DNA from: Candidatus Poribacteria bacterium
GTDB lineage: Bacteria > Poribacteria > WGA-4E > UBA9662
Reading direction: 5' to 3'
DNA: 64,000 nt
NCBI GenBank assembly: GCA_002709695.1
Contig: PAQF01000078.1
Location: 116,980-180,979, forward strand
Position 1 is the stretch's first letter. Every line of letters starts with the position of its first letter. This document shows, piece after piece, positions 2,229 through 25,146 of the stretch. The notes beneath the pieces were generated by a model. It searched no databases. It saw only the letters and a list, made by a program, of their open reading frames with translations, and was not told the DNA's origin. The translations under genes were made by a program, and so were the position numbers.

Positions 2229-3263
2229 ATGTTTGAAGTCTCAGACCCAAATTCCCCTATACCGATTACTATTCTAAGTGGATTTCTCGGTGCAGGAAAA
2301 ACTTCACTGCTCAACCATATATTACACGGAGATCATGGCCTCCGTGTTGGAGTCTTAGTTAATGATTTTGGTGAAATTAATATTGATGCGGAATTAGTTG
2401 CTGGTGTTTCTGGGGACTCAGTTAGTCTTTCAAACGGCTGTGTTTGCTGTTCGATTCGGGACGATCTAGTTGAATCAACTTTACAACTAGTCCAAGGGCC
2501 TAATAGACCTGAATATCTTATACTTGAAACAAGTGGGGTGGCAGATCCGGTCTCTGTTTCACTTACTTTTGTTGAAAGCGAATTGAAATCGCTAGTTGAA
2601 GTAGATAGTATATTAACTGTTGTGGATGCCGAGAATATACGAAGTTTGGATGGTGATTATGAGGAACTTGCTGAGGATCAAATTAGCTTGGCAGATATCG
2701 TAATTCTCAACAAAGTTGATCTCGCAAATCAACTTACTCTAAGTGAATTAAAATCATGGATTCATGGAATGGTTCCGAATGCTCGGATTATGGAAACAAC
2801 TCATGGGAAAGTTCCGCTTGAATTGATATTGGGTATAGGTCAATTTGAACCTGAGCGTGTTCTTGGGAAAACGCGCTCCGACATACACGTACATGCCGAA
2901 TCTGGTCATGATCATCACCAACATGACCACGAAGATAATGGCCATGATCATGATCATGATCATACATTGGTTTTTAGCACATGGAGTTATAGTTCTAGTG
3001 AACCGCATTCTTATAAGGCACTGCGTCAGGCTGTTGAGTCCTTACCTTCTACTATTTACCGAGTAAAGGGGATTGTATTTCTCAATGAATCTCCAGATCG
3101 GTGTGGTGTTATTCAGCTGGTAGGTAAGCGAACCCGTGTATCTGTTACCCAATCATGGGGTGACAAAACACCTTACACCCGAATTGTAGTGATCGGCACT
3201 CATGGGGGGGTCGATGCCAGCGAGCTCTCAGAACGTTTTGAATCTTGTCAAGTTAACGACTGA
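2229..3263 (+). CDS. COG0523 / CobW-family G3E GTPase (putative metal chaperone), His-rich linker
   Basis: Walker [19 protein letters not shown], CxCC motif (GCVCCS), His-rich [24 protein letters not shown], and CobW C-terminal domain ([10 protein letters not shown]...RIVVIGT). Confidence 0.85.
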
Positions 3264-3265
3264 AT

Positions 3266-4645
3266 TTGAAGCACAAAGCACAAATGGATATTGAGATGAA
3301 AAATCGAGTTCCAGTTACAGTGTTAACCGGTTTTTTGGGGGCTGGGAAGACGACCCTACTTAACCGTATTCTCAGTGAACATCATGGTAAACGTATTGCA
3401 GTTATCGAGAATGAATTTGGTGAAATAGGGGTTGATCACGAACTTGTGATTGGTACAGACGAAGAGATCTTCGAAATGAACAATGGTTGTATCTGTTGTA
3501 CTGTTCGTGGCGACCTAATCCGAATCCTAGGGAACCTAATGAAACGCCGGGATAAATTTGATTACATCTTGGTTGAAACAACAGGTTTAGCTGATCCTGG
3601 ACCAGTAGCACAAACTTTCTTTATGGATGCTGAGATGCAAAGCCAACTTGAATTAGATGGCATTGTTACTGTTGTTGATGCTAAACATATATGGCAACAT
3701 ATTGACGAAAGCAATGAGGCTAAGGAACAAATTGCCTTTGGTGACGTGATTTTGCTGAATAAAACAGATCTCGTAAGTCCAGAAGAACTCGGCAAACTCG
3801 AAAAACGCGTTCGTTCAATTAATGCTATGGCAAAGATTTACCAAACACAAAGCACATCTATTGAGATTAACAGGATTCTGAACATTGGAGGTTTCGATCT
3901 TGAACATGCTTTAGACATTGACCCTCACTTTTTAGAACCTGAGTACCCATTTAAATGGGTTGGGGTGTATCAACTTGAACCCGGAATGTATGAATTAACT
4001 AACCGTGAGAATCAGCAAATAATAACAAATGTTTGTATTCTAGATGCTACTGCTAAGTTTGATAAAAAAGAAATAGCGAACGAAACACTAGAAGAAGCTG
4101 TATTAGTATTTTCAGATGAAGAAAAAACAATTGATGGCCAATCAACTGTAACAATAGGGAAGGTCTTGAATCAATTGTCGTTTTCTGACGATATTACGTC
4201 CCAATGTTACTACGTGGAGATAAAAGAGACAGGATGTTACATGCTTTTTACTGAGCATCATCCACATGATTTTGACTTGGGATTGTATGATGGTAAGGGG
4301 AAAATCGATCCTGTTTATGATTATGAATATGGACACCACCATGAACATGATGATGATGTTACATCTGTTGGTGTAAGAATCGAAGGCGACCTAGATCCAA
4401 ATCGATTCAATGAATGGATTGGACATCTCCTTCAAACAAGAGGTCCCGATATCTTCCGTATGAAAGGAATTCTTAGTTTCATTGGCGTTCCAAACCGACA
4501 CGTTTTTCAAGGTATTCATATGCTCTTTGATAGCGAACCGGATAAGCTTTGGGAAGGCGAGATACGCCAAAATGAAATGATTTTTATTGGGCGCCATTTG
4601 GATCAAAAAGAGTTAGTTGAAGGGTTCAAATCGTGCCTCGTGTAA
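3266..4645 (+). CDS. COG0523 / CobW-family G3E GTPase paralog with ~150-aa insertion and His/Asp-rich segment
   Basis: [25 protein letters not shown], insertion between GTPase and CobW_C domains, [13 protein letters not shown]-terminal FRMKGILSF...MIFIGRHLD. Starts 3 nt after the previous paralog. Confidence 0.85.
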
Positions 4646-5685
4646 GTAGAAAAAAAAGGACTATAAGTCTGTGCGAGAACTGGCGAAGTATGATTAGTGA
4701 CCATGTAATTGATCTCTGTTGGTCTCCTCGAAAGGAGAAAATTGCAGCGGCCGCAGTCAGTGGACCTATTACTATTTTTAACGCTGAAACTGGTGATGTT
4801 GATCACGCGTTGGAAGGACATGGTTTTGGAACTATGTCTATAGCATGGCATCCGGAGGAGGACATGCTCGCAACTGCAGGCCAAGATGGGAAAGCGAAGT
4901 TGTGGTCTACAGAATCAGGAAATTTGCTCATGGAACTAGAATGTGGTGCGTCTTGGGTTGAGCATGTTTCTTGGAGCACTGATTCTACAAAAGACCGGAT
5001 TCTGGCGACTAGCGCCGGGAAAAAAATAAAATTCTGGTCTGCAAACGGTAACCTAATAGGGGAGGCCTCGGATCAGCAAAACACAATTTCTGATATCCAA
5101 TGGAATCCGGAAGAAAACATACTCGCCTCAATTTCCTATGGTGGGATAAAGCTATGGTCTCCTGATATTTCAAACGAACTCCGCATTTTTGATTGGCAAG
5201 GATCCGCATTGAAGATTCACTGGAGCCCTGATACCCGTTTCATAGCTACTGGAGACCAAGACTCAACGGTACATTTCTGGTTTGTGGAAACTGGACAGGA
5301 TCTCCAAATGTCTGGTTATCCAACTAAGATTCGTGAACTCTCTTGGGATAAGAGTAGCCGATATTTGGCTACGGGGGGTGGTTCACAAATAGTCATTTGG
5401 GATTGTTCCGGAAAAGGGCCGGAAGGGCGGAGACCAATTATGTTGGATGAGCATAAGGATTTTCTCGTAGATATAGCTTTTCAGCATCACGGAGATCTTT
5501 TAGCTTCAGCAGGTCTTGATGGCTTACTGGTAATTTGGGAACCCTTCACCGGCCGCAAACGGAAGCAACCGAAAGCTAGGATTGGTTTTGATCAAAGTCT
5601 TACAAAAGTAGCATGGTCCCTTGATGATACCAAGGTTTTAGTCGGTGATGATTCGGGGATTATCGCAGTTTTTACGCTTGGCTGA
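4633..5685 (+). CDS. WD40-repeat (beta-propeller) protein
   Basis: Repeated ...GH...V..WS...LA(T/S)...DG...W modules ([39 protein letters not shown]). The annotated start overlaps the COG0523 stop by 13 nt. An alternative Met at ~4690 is possible. Confidence 0.7.
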
Positions 5686-5807
5686 AAAACTGAGGCAGGA
5701 TCTTAGGTAGTTAAGATGCGTCGTTCGGCGACTCTCCTTAATTACCTTGAAAAATTAATGTCAATAAGATTCAATTATCAATCTGGTAGTATATCCTGAT
5801 TAAAACT

Positions 5808-6695
5808 TTAATCTACTGGTCGAAGCTCGGATGATAATTTCTGAAAACTGTTGATTAGGTCAGTAAGTTTACGTTGTTGGGCATTCACTTTTTGCTGGAT
5901 ACTTTTAACAAGATTGGCGATTGGGTCACTGTCTTTACTGCCTTTCTCTCGGGCCTTATGAATTTCTTGTTTAAGTTTGTAGATTTCACCTGATTTGATA
6001 CGATTGATTTCCACGTGCAAGTCTGAAAATGAGCCCTTTGCGCATTCAAGTTGTTGTGCTAGGTGCTTTTTCTTCTCCGCGAAAGTTTGGTCATGCAACT
6101 CGATTTCGTCGGCTGTTTCCACACTTATACGTTTAAGTGTATCGATATCTTGATCTTCATAGGCTCGGTTGATGACTACCATCATCTGTTTTTGCCGTTC
6201 ATAGCCCTCTTTACCTTCAGCTGATTTATCTGGATGATAAGCTTTAGCAAGTTCGAGATATAGTTTTCGTACGTGCTTCGTTTGCGAGGTTGAAAGTTTA
6301 TTTTTGTTGTTATTCTCTTCGATTTCTTTTTCCTGCTTTGTTGCGTCTTTTTCGTGATTTTCTAAGCGTTGCCGTTGCGACTTAAAACAGGATGCAACAC
6401 GTTCCTCGATTTTTGCTTGGGATACACCTTCTCGAACCAACAGTAGACGTAGCTTATACTCTCTCATTGATAAATTTACCTTATCAAGCTCGATATATGT
6501 CCCTGCCACGCGGAGATCATATGCTTTTTGGAAGTGGCGAACTTCAAGTTTTAAATCTTCAAGATCAAGCGTCATTTCTGCAACTTGGTGACGTGTCAAT
6601 TGAAGCTCAAGTTGTAGCTCTTCAATTTCAATCTGGTCGCGGTTTTTGGTGGGAACGATAGCAGCGCTAGGCATTTCCGATCCTGAACCAGTCAC
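5808..6695 (-). CDS. J-domain (DnaJ-like) protein with flanking coiled coils
   Basis: Central J-domain KLYLELAKAYHPDKSAEGKEGYERQKQMMVVINRAYE with the HPD motif; heptad-rich flanks. The GTG at 6695 overlaps the infA stop (TAGTG). An alternative ATG at 6674 has an AGGA RBS. Confidence 0.6.
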   Translation of the reverse strand: MTGSGSEMPSAAIVPTKNRDQIEIEELQLELQLTRHQVAEMTLDLEDLKLEVRHFQKAYDLRVAGTYIELDKVNLSMREYKLRLLLVREGVSQAKIEERVASCFKSQRQRLENHEKDATKQEKEIEENNNKNKLSTSQTKHVRKLYLELAKAYHPDKSAEGKEGYERQKQMMVVINRAYEDQDIDTLKRISVETADEIELHDQTFAEKKKHLAQQLECAKGSFSDLHVEINRIKSGEIYKLKQEIHKAREKGSKDSDPIANLVKSIQQKVNAQQRKLTDLINSFQKLSSELRPVD

Positions 6696-7063
6696 TATTT
6701 TCTTCGATAAATAATGCGTCCACGAGTCAAATCGTAAGGTGATAGTTCAACTGTAACGCTATCACCCGGTAAAATGCGGATAAAATGCTTACGCATGCGG
6801 CCACAGATATGTGCTAATACTTCATGCTTGTTCTCAAGTTCGACCCGAAAAGTAGCATTCGGTAAGGGTTCTGTAACTGTTCCCTCTACCTCTATTTTAT
6901 TCTGTTTTGATTTTTGGCTTTGTTCGTTTTCACTTGTGACCTGCTCCGGTGTATTGGTTGCAGCTACTGTAGTTTTGGGCTTTTTCTTTTTTCTTCTGCG
7001 GTTGTTATTATGTGGTTGAAAACCACCTGTTTTCTTTTTGAATGGTCTTTTTTTCCTGCTCAA
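6695..7063 (-). CDS. infA: Translation initiation factor IF-1 with ~55-aa Lys/Arg-rich N-terminal extension
   Basis: C-terminal 70 aa [66 protein letters not shown] is canonical IF-1. The only in-frame start upstream of the core is TTG at 7063 (AAGGAG RBS 7 nt upstream). There is no ATG, GTG or TTG between it and the core. Confidence 0.85.
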
Positions 7064-7917
7064 TTTTTTCTCCTTGTGCCTGTTACATTTGATTGATTTT
7101 TTTGTTTTGTGTCAATGCGAAATGAGTTTCCTTGCGCGGTGACAATTTCTCGGAAATAATTTACAGATTCTTGCAGTAGTAGCTCCACGTCATCTTGGCT
7201 TGAACTCGTTGTTATGATATCAATAGGCATTCCTCTATCTGTTTCACGTAGTGCTACATATGCTTTGACATAAACATTAGGGAATTTCTCCATTACCTGC
7301 TGCATCAATGGAGATACGCCTGATTCATGTAAGTCAACATATATGCGGATAGATGATCCTGCAGCACTAAACCTCTTTGATATTATTGGGGCAATATGGT
7401 TTTCAAAAACTGCCTGCATTTCACGTGGTGGGCCTGGCATCATTACAAGAGTAGATTGTTTCACTTCAACAGAGATACAAGGAGCCCATCCAACGGGGTT
7501 TTGGAATACCACAGCTGTTTCTGGCACCGTAGCCATTTTGACCAGTGCTTCACCAACTTCGGAGCGATCGCGAAGTTGGCGCCTCTCCATGTAGTTCTGT
7601 ACAGTGTTTTGGTCAACCACTAGATCTTTTCCAATAATTTCAGCAATCATTTCTACTGTCATATCGTCTGGTGTTGGTCCAAGACCTCCAGTGGTGATAA
7701 CTAATCCTGTTTGACGGTGTTCGATTGAATCTTGGATAGCCTCCTTCATTTCATCAAAATCATCACGAATCATAGAAATCCTGCGTATCGTCCCACCAAG
7801 TTGAAAAGTTTGTTGGGCAATCCAGTGTGCATTTGTATCTTGAATTTGTCCCAGAGTTAACTCAGTACCGATTGAGAACAACTCTATTACTGGTTCAGAT
7901 TCCAAATTGGATTCCAT
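7060..7917 (-). CDS. CinA-family protein (N-terminal MoCF-binding domain; no C-terminal PncC/CinA deamidase domain)
   Basis: [27 protein letters not shown]...[30 protein letters not shown] matches the CinA N-terminal molybdopterin-binding fold. At 285 aa it is shorter than full-length CinA. Confidence 0.75.
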
Positions 7918-9242
7918 TACGCTTTTGTGTCGGTAATAATCTGGCTATTCAACAAATTGAAAGTTATTCCTGTAGCCAATTTCGGATAAAAAAAGGTTGA
8001 CTTTTGCGGCATTGTTTTACCGTCCAAAGCAACTTCGTTGACATGATTAACGGACGTTGGATTCATTAAAAACGCGATTTGATAATCACCTGATCTAACC
8101 ATTTCGATTGTTTGGTCAGTGTTAGCTTTGTAGCTAATTTTTTCCTGATCTTTGGGGATTGTAACATCCACACCGAAAAATTTATTGATGATTTGGTCAT
8201 GTAGTATTTTAACATCAAGCTGATCAAGACGGGGGGCATTTGGATTTGATGGTGGTGCGATAACCAAGTGATAGTTTTGATTACCTGTGTAAACACCGAA
8301 AGCCGGTTGCTTATCAGAGAATTTTTCTAACTCTTCTCTTAGTTGGCTAAGGTTGTTATACTTAGTAATTTCAAAATGATCAGTTAATCTTCTGAGGGCT
8401 TCCGACACAAAATCCGGATCAAGTTGATATAGAAGTCGATTAATTGGTAATACTGCTAAACCTTTTGATTCCATACGTACCAAATTCATCATAACATAGT
8501 TATGGCCTTCAGAACCGTTCCATGTCTTCGATTTTTTTTCGATTTGTGCTTGATTTTCATTACGAAAAGCCAGCGACGTTTCGTACCGATGATGCCCATC
8601 AGCAATCAACAACGTTTTGGAAGCAAAAGCTGCCTTGATCCGCCCATTAATTTCGTCATTTTGGATCCTCCACATACGATGTGTTGATCCGAATTTTTCA
8701 GTGGTATCAATTAGAGGAAGGTTTAAAGCTGTATAATTTTGCATTTCATCTTCAATAATTCCTTCTAGATCAGAATATAAAAGAAAAATCGGGCTTAAAT
8801 TTGCATGGGTTCGGCGCATCAAATTGAGTCGGTCTAATTTGGGGGCAGCGAGCGTTTTTTCATGTGGGAGAATCACTCGCTTGTTAAATTCTTCCAACTT
8901 TCCAATAGCAATTAATGCTCTTCTTGTATAAGCTTTGCCTTCTGGGGTGTCGAAAGACTGGTCATAAACGTAGTAGCAAGGGGATGGATCTTTTATGAGG
9001 ATACCGTTACTAATCCAAGATTGCATCTGTTCTGCAGCACGCGTATATTGATTTTCTGTTTCTGTGTCTTGATCAGTAGGTTGGTTTAGGATGAGACGAA
9101 CGATGTTATGCTGATTCTGTTCTTGGAGTTGGATCCTATCTTCAACATTAATTACATCATAGGGAGGGGCAATAACTTCTGAAATATCATTGATTTTCTC
9201 TGGATTGTATCGTAATCCGCAAAATGGTACAACTTCTGCCAT
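7917..9242 (-). CDS. DUF1015-family protein
   Basis: N-terminus MAEVVPFCGLRYNPEK...VIAPPYDVI resembles the conserved DUF1015 N-terminal signature. 441 aa. Overlaps the CinA start by 1 nt. Confidence 0.6.
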   Translation of the reverse strand: MAEVVPFCGLRYNPEKINDISEVIAPPYDVINVEDRIQLQEQNQHNIVRLILNQPTDQDTETENQYTRAAEQMQSWISNGILIKDPSPCYYVYDQSFDTPEGKAYTRRALIAIGKLEEFNKRVILPHEKTLAAPKLDRLNLMRRTHANLSPIFLLYSDLEGIIEDEMQNYTALNLPLIDTTEKFGSTHRMWRIQNDEINGRIKAAFASKTLLIADGHHRYETSLAFRNENQAQIEKKSKTWNGSEGHNYVMMNLVRMESKGLAVLPINRLLYQLDPDFVSEALRRLTDHFEITKYNNLSQLREELEKFSDKQPAFGVYTGNQNYHLVIAPPSNPNAPRLDQLDVKILHDQIINKFFGVDVTIPKDQEKISYKANTDQTIEMVRSGDYQIAFLMNPTSVNHVNEVALDGKTMPQKSTFFYPKLATGITFNLLNSQIITDTKA

Positions 9243-9270
9243 AAAGTACTTTCTCTTAATTTAACTATGT

Positions 9271-10200
9271 TTAATCCCAAAGACGCGTACTGAAATACCG
9301 TTCCCCTATATCACAAAAAACGGTGACGATTTTCCCTTTCTTTATGTGTTTAGCAACCTCATATGCAGCTTGCATATATGCACCAGAAGATTGGCCAACG
9401 AACCATCCATACTTAGCCAAGGTGTTGCACATATCGTAAGCTTGATCAATAGAGATTGGGATTTTCTGGTCAACGATGCTATCATCGTATATCTTAGGAA
9501 CAATGTATTCAGGACTTCCAAGGGGTTTTAATCCTTCAATACCCGGAAATTCATCAGGAGCCACACAGCATATTTGGATATTCTTGCTGAATTCTTTCAA
9601 ACGACGACCCACACCAGTGATTGTGCCACCCGTTCCAACACCTGCCACGAAATGCGTCAATTCCCCTTGGGTTTGGTCTAAAATCTCAACTGCTGTGGTG
9701 TGATAGTGAGCAAGCCAATTGTCATTATTCTCATATTGATCAATCATAAAATACTTGTCTGGCAAGGCAATGTAGCGCCTATGAGCCTCCCGCATGGCTT
9801 CATCATAACCTTGAATAGCATCGGTAAAAACAATGTTTGCACCATGCGTTGAGATTCGCTTTTTACGTTCTTCGCTGGCATTATCTGGCATAACTAACTC
9901 AACTCGGTAACCTAAGACGGCCCCTATCATTGCATACGCAATCCCCGCATTGCCAGAAGTAGAGTCGAGGATAGCCGTGCCTAGTGTCAATTCGCCACTT
10001 TGAATTGCTTTGGTAATCATCCTCAGTGCTGGTCGGTCCTTGATCGAACCACCTGGATTGAACGTTTCCATTTTGGCAAAAAACTCCACATCTGGAAACT
10101 GATCATCAAAAAGGCGTAATTTGACCAAAGGTGTGTTGCCAATTTGCTCCAGGATAGGGTACTTTGAAAGGTCGAATCCTTCCGATTCGCAAGTTTTCAT
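9271..10200 (-). CDS. Cysteine synthase family PLP enzyme (CysK/CysM-like)
   Basis: IGNTPLVKL, GGSIKDRPALRMI (PLP lysine), SGNAGIAYAMI, GVGTGGTITG glycine loop. Confidence 0.8.
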   Translation of the reverse strand: MKTCESEGFDLSKYPILEQIGNTPLVKLRLFDDQFPDVEFFAKMETFNPGGSIKDRPALRMITKAIQSGELTLGTAILDSTSGNAGIAYAMIGAVLGYRVELVMPDNASEERKKRISTHGANIVFTDAIQGYDEAMREAHRRYIALPDKYFMIDQYENNDNWLAHYHTTAVEILDQTQGELTHFVAGVGTGGTITGVGRRLKEFSKNIQICCVAPDEFPGIEGLKPLGSPEYIVPKIYDDSIVDQKIPISIDQAYDMCNTLAKYGWFVGQSSGAYMQAAYEVAKHIKKGKIVTVFCDIGERYFSTRLWD

Positions 10201-10223
10201 CTAAAGTTCAATGTCCGATTAAG

Positions 10224-11000
10224 TTATGACGCCTCAATTGTATCGATTAAACTAGCAAGATAATCGCGGTCACGTTGTAGAGCTTCAAGCTTGTCGTCAC
10301 CATGCAAAAACTCTATTTCAATATAGTTATTATATCCAATATCTGCTAGTTTCTGAACAATTTTTTCATAGTCAACAACCCCATCAGCAATTGCGCAACC
10401 TTGGCCATCAGCATTAGCATTTTGCGCATGTACATTAACAATGTGCGAACCCAGCTTTTCAACTGTTTCATATGGGTCGTCTGCATCCGACCGAAATGAA
10501 GGTTGGAAGTAAGTCTTAATTGCTGGCACTCTAACATACTCAAGAAGTTCGAGTATGCTGTCTATACTATCAGTGAAATTATTGTTATGCATTTCCAATC
10601 CAAGTGTGAGGTCCCGGAACTGCGCCCAATGTGCTAAACTGGCAAAACGAAAAAAGATTGTTTGTTTGGTGTCAGTTGTTATTGTTTTTGAGCTTCCTCC
10701 TTTTGACCACACTCGGACAAGATTTGTACCCAAGCCCTCTGCAATTTTGTATGCTTCTTCAAAATGCTGTTGGTGTCTATCTAGGAGAGGATTGACGTAC
10801 GATCCATATGCTGAAACTTCTAGGTCTTTACCTTCAATAAGCTTTCTAACATGTGCTATATATTCTGAATCGTATGTCTCTGGCATATGTGGTTCTTGCC
10901 CCCAAATCTCAATTCCGTCGAAACCATAATCAGCAGCAATCGAGATCACTTCTTCTAACGGTCGATCTCTAAAAGCAATCGTGCACAAACCCAGTTTCAT
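10224..11000 (-). CDS. Sugar phosphate isomerase/epimerase (xylose isomerase-like TIM barrel)
   Basis: MKLGLCTIAFRDRPLEEVISIAADYGFDGIEIWG. I place the start at ATG 11000-10998 with GAGGAG RBS 6 nt upstream. The track ORF extends to 11084 but the extra 28 aa look non-genic. Confidence 0.75.
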   Translation of the reverse strand: MKLGLCTIAFRDRPLEEVISIAADYGFDGIEIWGQEPHMPETYDSEYIAHVRKLIEGKDLEVSAYGSYVNPLLDRHQQHFEEAYKIAEGLGTNLVRVWSKGGSSKTITTDTKQTIFFRFASLAHWAQFRDLTLGLEMHNNNFTDSIDSILELLEYVRVPAIKTYFQPSFRSDADDPYETVEKLGSHIVNVHAQNANADGQGCAIADGVVDYEKIVQKLADIGYNNYIEIEFLHGDDKLEALQRDRDYLASLIDTIEAS

Positions 11001-11103
11001 ATATAACTCCTCTATATAATTTATATAGAAAAACAGACACATTTGCACTGAAGACATCATAACATAAATAAGAGTCTCTTTCAACTCTATTTATTCAGCA
11101 ATA

Positions 11104-11964
11104 TCACAAATATTTGCCTATAATCAAACCTAATTTTTCCTTGATTTCGTCGGGAATAACCTGAGGATTAGTAGCAATAGACTTTTCAAGGGCTTTATGA
11201 GCTGGACTATCCTCATTCCCTTCTGGAATAGAGGGAATCAAGAATTTAACAATTTGTTTTGCTTTTTCAACATTAGCCACTAGATTCTCGATAATCATCT
11301 CAGTGGTGACAGTGTCGTGATTTGGATGCCAGCAATCATAGTCTGTTGAACAGGCTAAAAGCGCATAGCTGATTTCGGCTTCGCGTGCTAGCTTTGCCTC
11401 AGGTCCTGCGGTCATGCCAATCACATCGAATCCAAGTTGTCGATAAAGCCTCGATTCTGCTAATGTAGAAAAAGCGGGTCCTTCCATGCAAATGTATGTT
11501 CCTCCTAAATGAGTCTTCGCCTCAACTTTTACAGTACTTTCATAAAGTAAATTGCTGAGAATTGGACAAAATGGCTGAGCGAAGCTAACATGAGCAACTA
11601 TCCCATTTCCAAAGAAGGTCGAAATTCTATTTTTTGTGTGGTCATAAAGCTGATCTGGTATTACGAAATGCCGAGGCTCAATTTCTTCTTTCAAACTTCC
11701 AACTGCACTAACAGAGAGTAACCATTTAACACCAATACTTTTAAGTGCATAGATATTTGCTCTAACATTTATCTCAGATGGTAACAATAGGTGTCCAACT
11801 CCATGCCTTGGTAGAAAAGCTACACGTTGGTCTTCAATTGTGCCAATAGTCAAACTACTGCTTGGTTTTCCAAATGGCGTATCGATCTCAACGTTCTCAA
11901 CTTGGCTTAAGCCTTCCATCTGGTAAAATCCAGAACCACCGATTATTCCGATTCCTGCGGTCAT
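11104..11964 (-). CDS. mtnP: S-methyl-5'-thioadenosine phosphorylase (PNP/MTAP family)
   Basis: MTAGIGIIGGSGFY ... HLLLPSEINVRANIYALKSIGVKWLLSVSAVGSL is typical of MTAP. AAGGGG RBS. Confidence 0.8.
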   Translation of the reverse strand: MTAGIGIIGGSGFYQMEGLSQVENVEIDTPFGKPSSSLTIGTIEDQRVAFLPRHGVGHLLLPSEINVRANIYALKSIGVKWLLSVSAVGSLKEEIEPRHFVIPDQLYDHTKNRISTFFGNGIVAHVSFAQPFCPILSNLLYESTVKVEAKTHLGGTYICMEGPAFSTLAESRLYRQLGFDVIGMTAGPEAKLAREAEISYALLACSTDYDCWHPNHDTVTTEMIIENLVANVEKAKQIVKFLIPSIPEGNEDSPAHKALEKSIATNPQVIPDEIKEKLGLIIGKYL

Positions 11965-12044
11965 ATGTCCCCTTTATGTTACAATCTTATTAGTGTGATT
12001 TTTCTTATGGTAGCCTAAGAATATAGAAAAAGACTGGATGTTGA

Positions 12045-12053
12045 ATTATACCA
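12045..12053 (-). promoter_or_regulatory. Putative extended -10 promoter (TGGTATAAT) for the mtnP operon
   Basis: Minus-strand TGGTATAAT lies ~80 nt upstream of the mtnP ATG, in the divergent intergenic region. Confidence 0.3.
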
Positions 12054-12072
12054 TCTTCAATTTTTACTTAAA

Positions 12073-12903
12073 GTGCAAATGACTTTACTGAACTGTGGTA
12101 CCTTAACTATTGAGGGGAAATCAGTTGGTGGGTTAGCAACATATATGCGTGTCAAAGAGCTCGATCTGATCTTTGATCTGGGACGGTGTCCAATAAGTTT
12201 TATTGGGACGAATCATGTTTTTATCACTCATTTTCATCTTGATCATTACTTTGGATTACCAATCTACGTTAGCCAGCGCTGGATTTCTAACATGCCTCCC
12301 GGTGAAGTTTTTGTTCCTGCAGAAGGGATAGAACAACTTCAAAACATCCTTGATAGCATTGCCAAACTTGATAGCCAGCGGACGTGGAATCATCGTCTCG
12401 TACCAGTCAAAGTTGGCGACCGAATTCCGTTTCGAAGGAATTTGGTCGCCTATGCTATAGCAGTAAACCATACTATACCTGCTGTTGGGTACTTAGTTTG
12501 TGAGGTTCGAGATAAACTTAAACCAGAACATCTAGGACGACCAGGGGCTGAGATCGCTGAATTGCGCAGAAAAGGAGTTCCAGTCACAAACCGCCTCGAG
12601 TTGCCTATCATTGCCTATTTAGGCGATACTCAAACAGTTTCAATGGAAACTCACCCACTCTTGGCTCGTTGTCAAATTTTAGTATGCGAGTGTACCTTTT
12701 TATTGCCTGAAGATCGACAAAGAGCCGAAAAGACAAAGCATTTCCATCTTGATTCTTTGATTAGTTTAGTCAAAAACTTTAATGGTGATAAAATTGTTCT
12801 TACACATTTTTCCCAACGCTACTCTACTCACCTCATTCAAAAACAAATTGAGCAAGCGATTCCAGATCCTGCTCAACGAGCAAAGATTGGTTTATTTATT
12901 TAA
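12073..12903 (+). CDS. MBL-fold metallo-hydrolase
   Basis: HFHLDHYFGL (HxHxDH) motif plus downstream His/Asp ligands. Confidence 0.7.
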   Translation: MQMTLLNCGTLTIEGKSVGGLATYMRVKELDLIFDLGRCPISFIGTNHVFITHFHLDHYFGLPIYVSQRWISNMPPGEVFVPAEGIEQLQNILDSIAKLDSQRTWNHRLVPVKVGDRIPFRRNLVAYAIAVNHTIPAVGYLVCEVRDKLKPEHLGRPGAEIAELRRKGVPVTNRLELPIIAYLGDTQTVSMETHPLLARCQILVCECTFLLPEDRQRAEKTKHFHLDSLISLVKNFNGDKIVLTHFSQRYSTHLIQKQIEQAIPDPAQRAKIGLFI

Positions 12904-24531: not shown

Positions 24532-25146
24532 ATGAGCCGGTATACTGGACCGAAAGTTAAAAAGCTTCGTGCCTTTGGCGTTGATTTGCCTGGACTCTCT
24601 CGCAAATCGCAAAGAGATCGACCGTATGTTCCTGGCGAACACGGTCAAAGTTTTCGTCGAAAACCATCTCCTTATGGTGAGAGATTAATTGAAAAACAAA
24701 AGGTCCGATTTAACTATGGGCTGAGTGAGAAGCAGATGCGGCGACTCATGTCGGAAGCTCGTCGAAGTCAAATGGCTGCAGGCGATAAATTAATGGAATT
24801 ACTTGAACGCCGTTTGGATAATGTTGTCTTTCGTTCGGGGTTCGCACCGACAATTCCAGCTGCACGTCAATTAGTAAATCATGGGCATTTCACTGTTAAT
24901 GGTAAAAAGGTAAATATTCCGTCTTATCGCGTTGATACTGGCGATATAATTGCTCCTCGTCAGAAAAGCATGAACTTGGAATGCATTGAGGTATCGCTTG
25001 AAAACCCGCCACTCTCAAGCACCGATTGGATTGGATTAGATGCAGACAAAAAAACCGCTTCCGTCAATTCGTTACCGACAATCGAGGCTGTCCCTTTTCC
25101 ACTGGATATCCAATTAGTTGTTGAATATTACTCGAGACTGCTATAA
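24532..25146 (+). CDS. rpsD: 30S ribosomal protein S4
   Basis: MSRYTGPKVKKLRAFGVDLPGLSRKS...RPYVPGEHGQ; the S4 domain VVFRSGFAPTIPAARQLVNHGHFTVNGKKVNIPSYRV. Confidence 0.95.
   Translation: MSRYTGPKVKKLRAFGVDLPGLSRKSQRDRPYVPGEHGQSFRRKPSPYGERLIEKQKVRFNYGLSEKQMRRLMSEARRSQMAAGDKLMELLERRLDNVVFRSGFAPTIPAARQLVNHGHFTVNGKKVNIPSYRVDTGDIIAPRQKSMNLECIEVSLENPPLSSTDWIGLDADKKTASVNSLPTIEAVPFPLDIQLVVEYYSRLL

Follow-up and report, generated by a model that had tools for sequence, protein, structure and literature searches.

Here, we have analysed a stretch of 64,000 nucleotides (nt) from the metagenome-assembled genome of a marine Candidatus Poribacteria bacterium (contig PAQF01000078.1 of assembly GCA_002709695.1, positions 116,980 to 180,979 of the forward strand; hereafter the window) and find that its infA gene encodes translation initiation factor IF-1 with a long, charged N-terminal tail. 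Judged by its profile and structure matches, the protein is a full canonical IF-1 (residues 52-122) behind a 51-residue N-terminal extension. We propose that the IF-1 of Poribacteria carries a conserved, two-part disordered tail that would act as an electrostatic tether to the RNA of the 30S subunit or to mRNA, an explanation which, taken as a whole, we regard as evenly balanced between being right and being wrong. An earlier note on this DNA, made from the sequence alone, had drawn attention to the tail and to the unusual neighbours of the gene, and its claims are taken up below where our results bear on them.

That the core of the protein is an IF-1 came from several comparisons. It scores 123 bits against the TIGR00008 equivalog model (cutoff 61.15), covering model positions 1-68 of 69, and 97.6 bits against PF01176 (cutoff 30.2). 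The PDB has 12 distinct sequences of IF-1, all of them 71-87 amino acids (aa) long and aligning to query residues 50-122 (E down to 1e-29), so that about 51 residues of the window protein are extra; its length of 122 aa is accordingly outside the norm of about 70-75 residues for this single-domain family. The model built with AlphaFold2 (AF2) from a 38-sequence alignment has an OB barrel at residues 57-118 with a predicted local distance difference test score (pLDDT) of about 90, consisting of strands 57-67, 71-76, 81-86, 102-107 and 114-118 and a short helix at 88-92. In this model, residues 1-56 lack secondary structure, with a pLDDT of 38-65, and the tail is thus predicted to be intrinsically disordered. 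Compared with the IF-1 of E. coli, T. thermophilus and M. tuberculosis, residues 52-122 of the window protein are the same five-strand OB fold, whereas the Poribacteria protein adds 51 charge-segregated residues and its gene lies outside map-infA-rpmJ and starts mostly with TTG or GTG. When the tail alone was used as the query, there was no match in the PDB at E ≤ 10 and no meaningful match in Pfam. Homology of the tail to known peptides was also considered, including ribosomal protein L34 on account of KRTF- and FQP-like strings, and was rejected for want of support in the PDB or Pfam.

The reading frame leaves little choice as to where translation begins. From the in-frame stop upstream (codon -17) as far as Met90 within the OB fold, the frame has no ATG, GTG or TTG other than the TTG at codon 1, and ahead of the core it has a single near-cognate codon, an ATA at codon 57, which has no Shine-Dalgarno (SD) sequence. 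Since there is no other usable start codon before the OB fold, a functional IF-1 requires translation of the tail. The SD sequence of infA is among the five strongest SD matches of the 49 genes in the window, of which only 9-16 have an SD match of at least 5 nt. On these points the earlier note stands: it had named the TTG with its AAGGAG ribosome-binding site as the only available start, had asked whether ATA or another codon might be used instead, and had placed a disordered tail ahead of a canonical OB fold. Its description of the tail as about 55 aa rich in lysine and arginine is partly right, in that residues 1-30 are basic (net charge +15), but residues 31-56 are neutral to acidic and the extension is of about 51 aa. 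The last five or so residues of the second part match the N-terminus of canonical IF-1.

The tail is not peculiar to one genome. A database search returned well over 100 clusters of IF-1 proteins of 117-128 aa with such tails, many of them on multi-megabase contigs, and the window locus itself is also found on contigs from Tara Oceans and other marine metagenomes. A genome scan of infA loci, of which 80 were kept (3 labelled Candidatus Poribacteria and 77 from other phyla), found the tail in all three of the former and a long IF-1 tail in none of the latter. Across relatives, the tail is 51-62 aa long with one exception of 118 aa. Its first part spans 24-36 aa with a net charge of +10 to +15 in all 37 relatives that have a tail of standard length, and its second part spans 23-30 aa with a net charge of 0 to -8. 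The exception comes from the locus L085 (7023-7220), where the tail contains 8.2 tandem copies (94% matches) of an in-frame 24-nt repeat that encodes GGRGRANA units, giving a tail of 118 aa in a protein of 184 aa; the first part of the tail in P0114 is 92 aa long with a net charge of +23, owing to its repeat. The start signals are conserved as well. Among the nine loci in which they were compared (the window, L001, L009, L014, L081, L083, L085, L087 and L088), AAGGAG, AAAGGAGA or AAGGGAGA stands 6-9 nt before the extended infA start in every one, and the start codon, always behind a strong SD sequence, is other than ATG in eight (four TTG and four GTG, against a single ATG). Beyond the SD sequence and the first codons, the nine aligned upstream regions have no conservation, and no conserved leader or regulatory RNA was found upstream of infA.

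Comparison of the tail with the core further supports that the tail is a translated part of the protein. In the 38-sequence alignment, 50 of the 51 invariant columns fall within the 66-residue core. The ratio of nonsynonymous to synonymous substitution rates (dN/dS) amounts to 0.24-0.44 in the tail, as against 0.016-0.036 in the core, synonymous sites being near saturation, and the proportion of nonsynonymous differences (pN) in the tail, 0.18-0.51 between lineages, is well below that of synonymous differences (pS). Indels in the tail-coding DNA are all in frame. The conserved SD sequence, the in-frame indels and the tail dN/dS below 1 together argue for a translated disordered region that is constrained in composition. 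These patterns indicate that the tail is under purifying selection for length and charge, not for sequence, that the OB core is under housekeeping-level constraint, and that the charged tail is phylum-wide in Poribacteria. The earlier note had suggested aligning relatives to see whether the extension is lineage-wide, and the alignment indicates that it is, with the design kept while the sequence diverges.

A tail of similar layout was found in a second phylum. Searching outward from P0238, we found more than 100 clusters of Armatimonadota IF-1 proteins of 107-137 aa with an N-terminal tail rich in Gly, Arg, Pro and Ser. These proteins (P0369-P0487; L094 4001-4336; L089 249-599) start with 'MPPKRTYRGGGG...' or 'MAGRPGG...', and NCBI assigns such members to metagenome-assembled genomes of Chthonomonadales and Armatimonadaceae. 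With a median of 49 aa, their tails consist to 68% of G, R, P and S; the basic part has a net charge of +6 to +12 and the rest of -1 to -4. As in Poribacteria, a basic disordered segment is followed by a short acidic patch and then by the OB fold. On a Chthonomonadales contig (L094), the tailed infA lies in the canonical array S5-L30-L15-SecY-Adk-Map-infA-L36-S13-S11-S4-RpoA-L17, and on a short Armatimonadota contig the ATG of infA directly follows the map stop codon, with a GGAGG SD sequence; the start codon is ATG in both Armatimonadota loci that were checked (L089 and L094). The Armatimonadota gene, with its G/R/P/S tail, ATG start and place in the ribosomal cluster, thus differs from that of Poribacteria, which has a K/R/N/Q/T tail and TTG or GTG starts and is relocated. 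Because the composition is unrelated, the start is ATG and the gene position is canonical, the Armatimonadota tail is of independent origin, and by these comparisons the charged layout of the IF-1 tail has arisen at least twice. It follows from the Armatimonadota gene that such a tail can also occur on an IF-1 encoded within the ribosomal cluster.

Other candidates for long IF-1 proteins were less convincing. Among the 150 best cluster representatives, most others were over-extended gene calls with random-looking upstream sequence and were rejected, and those that look real are only the Poribacteria type, P0149, the RG-rich proteins (P0238 and P0191) and a short Acidobacteriota type. The last was seen in about ten Acidobacteriota infA loci (L015, L033, L040, L042, L043, L047, L048, L056, L064 and L068) as a charged extension ahead of the usual start region, for example MARRPEPEKKKPGEGSGK-. 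It too is a charged N-terminal addition (MARRPEPEKKKxxEGSGK-), but is only about 16 aa long and of mixed charge. We also observed one representative, P0135 (343 aa), with two tandem IF-1 domains, low-complexity sequence between them and a Lys-rich C-terminus; it is a single cluster representative and its reality is putative.

Could the tail be a tolerated by-product of gene relocation? According to this explanation, infA moved behind the upstream gene of CinA-N type and thereby gained a new start together with some A-rich or repeat-prone 5' sequence, which is translated into a harmless peptide. That the tail evolves 10-20 times faster than the core, that in-frame tandem repeats have lengthened it in one lineage (24 nt in 8.2 copies), and that tail and relocation occur together in every Poribacteria locus seen are all in keeping with it. 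It does not account well for the narrow range in which length and charge are held in the 37 standard-length relatives while the sequence turns over, nor for a tail pN well below pS, and Armatimonadota evolved a tail of this layout on their own, with infA left in its place. We therefore consider a mere by-product unlikely.

How might such a tail act on the ribosome? IF1 sits in the A site of the 30S subunit between h44, the 530 loop and uS12, and has been described as shallowly anchored. The OB domain of eIF1A binds the A site like IF1, and its N-terminal tail (NTT), which is about 25 aa long and basic, threads towards the P site and the mRNA channel, stabilises 40S binding and makes start-codon choice less stringent (PMC2731904; PMC5756025). 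In the Poribacteria factor, the first 30 or so residues of the tail form a polycationic segment with a net charge of about +14. We suggest that its OB domain would bind the 30S A site, as that of every IF-1 does. A spacer of about 25 residues would let this segment reach 16S rRNA, mRNA or initiator tRNA near the decoding centre and the mRNA channel. In this way, the tail would add avidity and a faster on-rate, or a higher 30S occupancy, to a shallowly anchored factor, and it might possibly affect mRNA recruitment or start-codon selection, as the tails of eIF1A do. Binding of RNA by the tail, as the earlier note had suggested, is plausible.

The resemblance to eIF1A has clear limits. eIF1A and aIF1A have an OB domain of the same kind at the same ribosomal site, with disordered charged tails, as in Poribacteria IF-1. 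On the other hand, the Poribacteria protein reaches no more than 25.9 bits with the eIF-1A model TIGR00523 (cutoff 102.9), lacks the helical subdomain and the C-terminal tail, and ends four residues past its last strand. Its basic and acidic segments are both N-terminal, with the acidic one nearest to the OB fold, whereas in eIF1A the basic segment is N-terminal and the acidic one C-terminal. Because it is the acidic segment that adjoins the OB fold in Poribacteria, the geometry is not the same as in eIF1A. The likeness would be one of functional analogy at most, with no homology of tail sequence.

We would like to point out several further observations that weigh against a tether on the ribosome. 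The tail is known from sequence and from a predicted model alone. The basic residues of eIF1A adjoin the OB fold, while in Poribacteria about 25 residues of spacer lie between them. In bacterial pre-initiation complexes, the C-terminal domain of IF3 holds the region near the P site and could exclude the tail. The primary sequence of the tail also diverges fast (pN as given above), and any specific contact it makes must therefore be compositional. If these genomes also hold a plain infA of 72 aa in the ribosomal cluster, the gene described here could be a specialised paralogue. Finally, low-complexity basic tails can persist as tolerated passengers.

A role of the tail away from the ribosome is about as improbable as that of a by-product. 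Together with the cold-shock-like OB fold of IF-1, the tail could serve as a general RNA chaperone, in association with the nucleoid or with condensates, in phase separation, or in coating DNA or RNA. The tail is a block polyampholyte, with a +14 block and then an acidic one, as is typical of self-associating sequences and of non-specific binders of nucleic acids, and the Armatimonadota tail is RGG-like. Nothing specific supports such a role, however; IF-1 is not known to act anywhere but at the 30S A site, and its core is unchanged.

In a bolder version of the tether, some bacteria would have independently given IF-1 tails like those of eIF1A that tune the choice of start site, and the J-domain protein encoded next to infA in Poribacteria would link initiation complexes to Hsp70. 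We hold this version to be speculative and rather unlikely. If true, the tails would extend out of the A site to both the mRNA channel and the P site, possibly favouring SD-poor or non-AUG starts; such starts appear to be common in the window.

Extensions of this kind are better known from another initiation factor. The N-terminal extensions of bacterial IF2 are lineage-variable and flexible and aid recruitment to the 30S subunit (PMC13345285; 10.64898/2026.02.08.704698). They are well known and belong to a different factor, whereas the extension in Poribacteria is on IF-1. No counterpart on IF-1 is described in the accessible parts of these two sources, where PMC13345285 applies the term 'N-terminal extension' to IF2 only and 10.64898/2026.02.08.704698 mentions IF1 only within its reference list. 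Elsewhere, bacterial IF-1 is described as a bare OB domain, the charged tails being additions of eIF1A and aIF1A (PMC2731904, PMC6122471). Our literature searches found nothing on an N-terminally tailed bacterial IF-1, and what has been written on an 'infA N-terminal extension' concerns the transit peptides of plastid infA genes transferred to the nucleus.

In Poribacteria the infA gene has also left its usual place. All 12 related loci, which come from about eight lineages with IF-1 identities as low as 56%, have the order DUF1015-CinA-N-infA; the Poribacteria-type loci used for gene order are L001, L009, L014 and L081-L088. At these loci the fuller order is TIM barrel, a small open reading frame (ORF) in some cases, CysM-like, DUF1015, sometimes a hydrolase, CinA-N-like and infA. 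CysM-like and TIM-barrel genes precede DUF1015 wherever the locus extends that far (in L014, CysM only), a J-like gene directly follows infA in all lineages except the most divergent one, L088, and MTAP upstream of the TIM-barrel gene was seen only in the clade of the window (L081/L082). In two loci (L001 3950-5029 and L083 5992-7032), a gene for an alpha/beta-hydrolase of about 350 aa is inserted between DUF1015 and CinA-N, so that these two genes are not an obligate unit. Among the 77 non-Poribacteria loci, none has a DUF1015, CinA or J-like gene within 6 kb of infA, and in 65 a crude motif test found Map and/or L36 adjoining it. As the order is kept in relatives and absent from the 77 other loci, both the relocation and the new neighbourhood are traits of Poribacteria. 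The earlier note had regarded infA as out of its ribosomal place and its neighbours as unusual, and had reckoned with an order that no relative shares; the first two views are confirmed by the comparison with other phyla, and the third case does not arise.

The relocation could mean that this gene is a second, specialised IF-1 paralogue, acting with the J-like protein and perhaps with the CinA-N and DUF1015 proteins in a condition-specific module while a plain infA does the housekeeping. Besides the position outside the ribosomal cluster, this explanation has on its side the Poribacteria-specific J-like gene, which comes right after infA in every lineage but one and overlaps it in the window and in L087. 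A specialised copy is hard to reconcile with a core dN/dS of 0.016-0.036, with 50 of 66 core positions invariant, or with the score against the TIGR00008 equivalog. Among the matches listed, moreover, each of three Poribacteria genomes has a single infA locus (a weak point), L088 keeps both the tail and the DUF1015-CinA-N-infA order without the J-like gene, DUF1015 has a better-supported role in metabolism, and in Armatimonadota it is the ribosomal-cluster gene that has the tail. Taken together, these observations make a paralogue slightly less probable still than a by-product.

The tail is partly invisible in public protein sets. For close Poribacteria relatives (L081 7917-8270; P0012-P0017), records of the Prokaryotic Genome Annotation Pipeline (PGAP) at NCBI give an IF-1 of 89 aa that starts from an ATT codon within the tail, while a TTG with AAGGAG stands 84 nt upstream in the same frame; we attribute this to homology-guided start calling, which invokes the ATT. 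That these records are right, the long tail is an annotation artefact and the real start is a non-canonical codon near the OB fold is highly improbable, since the window has GTA at the position of the relatives' ATT and no near-cognate codon ahead of the core other than the ATA without SD, the SD sequence precedes the long start in nine of nine loci, and the upstream frame is open with in-frame indels and a pN below pS. The practical lesson is that start calling in the manner of PGAP can cut the IF-1 tail from Poribacteria records.

What the neighbouring genes contribute is a separate matter. The DUF1015 protein matches PF06245 at 303.6 bits, covering positions 2-324 of the 325 in the profile, and this family has been proposed to be a serine kinase, SerBK, able to replace SerB (preprint 10.1101/2024.10.14.618325). 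In the window (7917-10200), as in every Poribacteria locus seen, the gene lies directly downstream of one for a CysM/CysK-type pyridoxal-phosphate (PLP) enzyme. This arrangement suggests a pairing of serine or phosphoserine with cysteine, through an O-phosphoserine route to cysteine, and since DUF1015 always follows the CysM/CysK-type enzyme, such a metabolic pairing explains its position more economically than a tie to translation would. Most likely, the DUF1015 and CinA-N genes serve metabolism and are carried along in a gene order specific to the phylum, without forming part of any translation module. The earlier note had thought of a stress- or dormancy-linked module of translation control, and nothing points there: the proposed serine kinase stands beside a CysM/CysK-type enzyme. 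Its label 'CinA-N' is apt, as the protein has PF00994 (the MoCF_biosynth domain) only, at aa 14-180, and lacks the C-terminal PncC/CinA deamidase domain; the CinA equivalog models all score below cutoff and match over their N-terminal 250 or so positions only (NF002291, 180 bits against 293).

The J-like protein has the marks of its family in part. Its match to Pfam DnaJ (23.2 bits at aa 136-180) is under the cutoff of 27.8, PDB J domains match it at E = 0.03-0.1, and the alignment covers helices II and III only, with helices I and IV not recognised. In its favour, none of H154, P155 and D156 varies across 18 homologues, and many relatives have a precomputed PF00226 match and the NCBI name 'J domain-containing protein'. 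The AF2 model is all-helical with a long coiled coil and has helices at 136-153 and 162-180; in a Foldseek search against the PDB there was no whole-fold match at E ≤ 0.001, only generic coiled coils. The protein search gave 86 matches, and every organism name given was of Poribacteria; one NCBI protein, of a Candidatus Poribacteria bacterium, is 100% identical to that of the window. The J-domain gene announced earlier can thus be upheld as to the HPD motif and helices II and III, and falls short of the family threshold. The start of the gene is similarly two-sided. Its GTG, which overlaps infA, has no SD sequence, and seven codons further on there is an ATG (6674) that AGGA precedes by 6 nt. 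Gene calls in relatives use one or the other, with the ATG chosen in those of 285 aa, and the gene may start at ATG 6674. The overlap TAGTG that the earlier note had read between infA and the J-domain gene is there in the sequence, but it hinges on that GTG. It is possible that the J-like protein is a partner of IF-1; apart from the constant place of its gene behind infA, nothing hints at a functional tie between the two.

The features discussed are collected in the table. The four genes from DUF1015 to J-like make up the 3' end of a cluster of seven genes on the same strand, in which MTAP, TIM-barrel and CysM-like genes precede them.

Table. Position of infA, its parts and its same-strand neighbours in the window.
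Feature	Positions	Strand	Details
MTAP, same-strand cluster	11104-11964	-	
Sugar-phosphate isomerase/epimerase TIM barrel, same-strand cluster	10224-11084, probable start 11000	-	
CysM/CysK-type PLP enzyme, same-strand cluster	9271-10200	-	
DUF1015 family protein	7917-9242	-	441 aa; PF06245 E=1.8e-90
MoCF_biosynth / COG1058-type, CinA-N-like	7060-7917	-	285 aa; PF00994 E=7.5e-34
Shine-Dalgarno AAGGAG	7070-7075	-	6 nt before TTG 7061-7063; inside CinA-N-like 3' end
infA, IF-1 with TTG start	6695-7063	-	122 aa; PF01176 at aa 57-120; TIGR00008
IF-1 tail part 1, codons 1-30	6974-7063	-	Lys/Arg-rich, net charge +15
IF-1 tail part 2, codons 31-56	6896-6973	-	neutral to acidic spacer
IF-1 OB-fold core, codons 57-122 and stop	6695-6895	-	
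J-domain-like coiled-coil protein	5808-6695	-	295 aa; weak Pfam DnaJ match
J-domain-like helices II and III, aa 136-180	6156-6290	-	HPD aa 154-156, nt 6228-6236

The junctions of the four genes, described earlier as overlaps of 1-4 nt, are read directly in the sequence: TAATG joins the DUF1015 stop to the CinA-N ATG with a 1-nt overlap, TTGA joins the TGA stop of the CinA-N-like gene to the infA TTG with a 4-nt overlap, and TAGTG joins infA to the J-like gene with a 1-nt overlap. A translationally coupled operon is nevertheless not a general property of the locus, because outside the clade of the window the genes are separated by gaps of 9-230 nt instead, with the exception of an infA/J overlap in L087. 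A consensus scan found no terminator-like sites on the minus strand within the seven-gene cluster; terminator and promoter scans of 5500-12200 gave fewer matches than shuffled controls and nothing of use on the minus strand. No Rfam families and no tRNAs were found in the window. In the TIM-barrel gene, the longest ORF opens with a TTG that lacks an SD sequence, and 28 codons further in stands an ATG, with AGGAG 6 nt before it, that gives 258 aa, the length called in relatives; for both reasons the gene probably starts at 11000.

Elsewhere in the window, a stand-alone rpsD (ribosomal protein S4; 24532-25146) lies between genes for a nitroreductase and a TPR protein and is, like infA, apart from the S13-S11-S4-RpoA array seen in the Armatimonadota locus L094. 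Two neighbouring paralogues of CobW/COG0523-type GTPases, the second with a His/Asp-rich stretch, are followed by an overlapping gene for a WD40 beta-propeller (2229-5685). With genes for a sulfatase, a GH95 enzyme, a WD40 propeller and several enzymes of the PhyH and GFO/IDH/MocA types, the rest of the window would suit a marine bacterium of this phylum.

The conserved, charged IF-1 tail of about 50 residues, having arisen at least twice as far as the comparison of Poribacteria with Armatimonadota indicates, means that this bacterial factor is not architecturally frozen. The tailed IF-1 proteins offer a natural system in which to ask what such tails do at the decoding centre.

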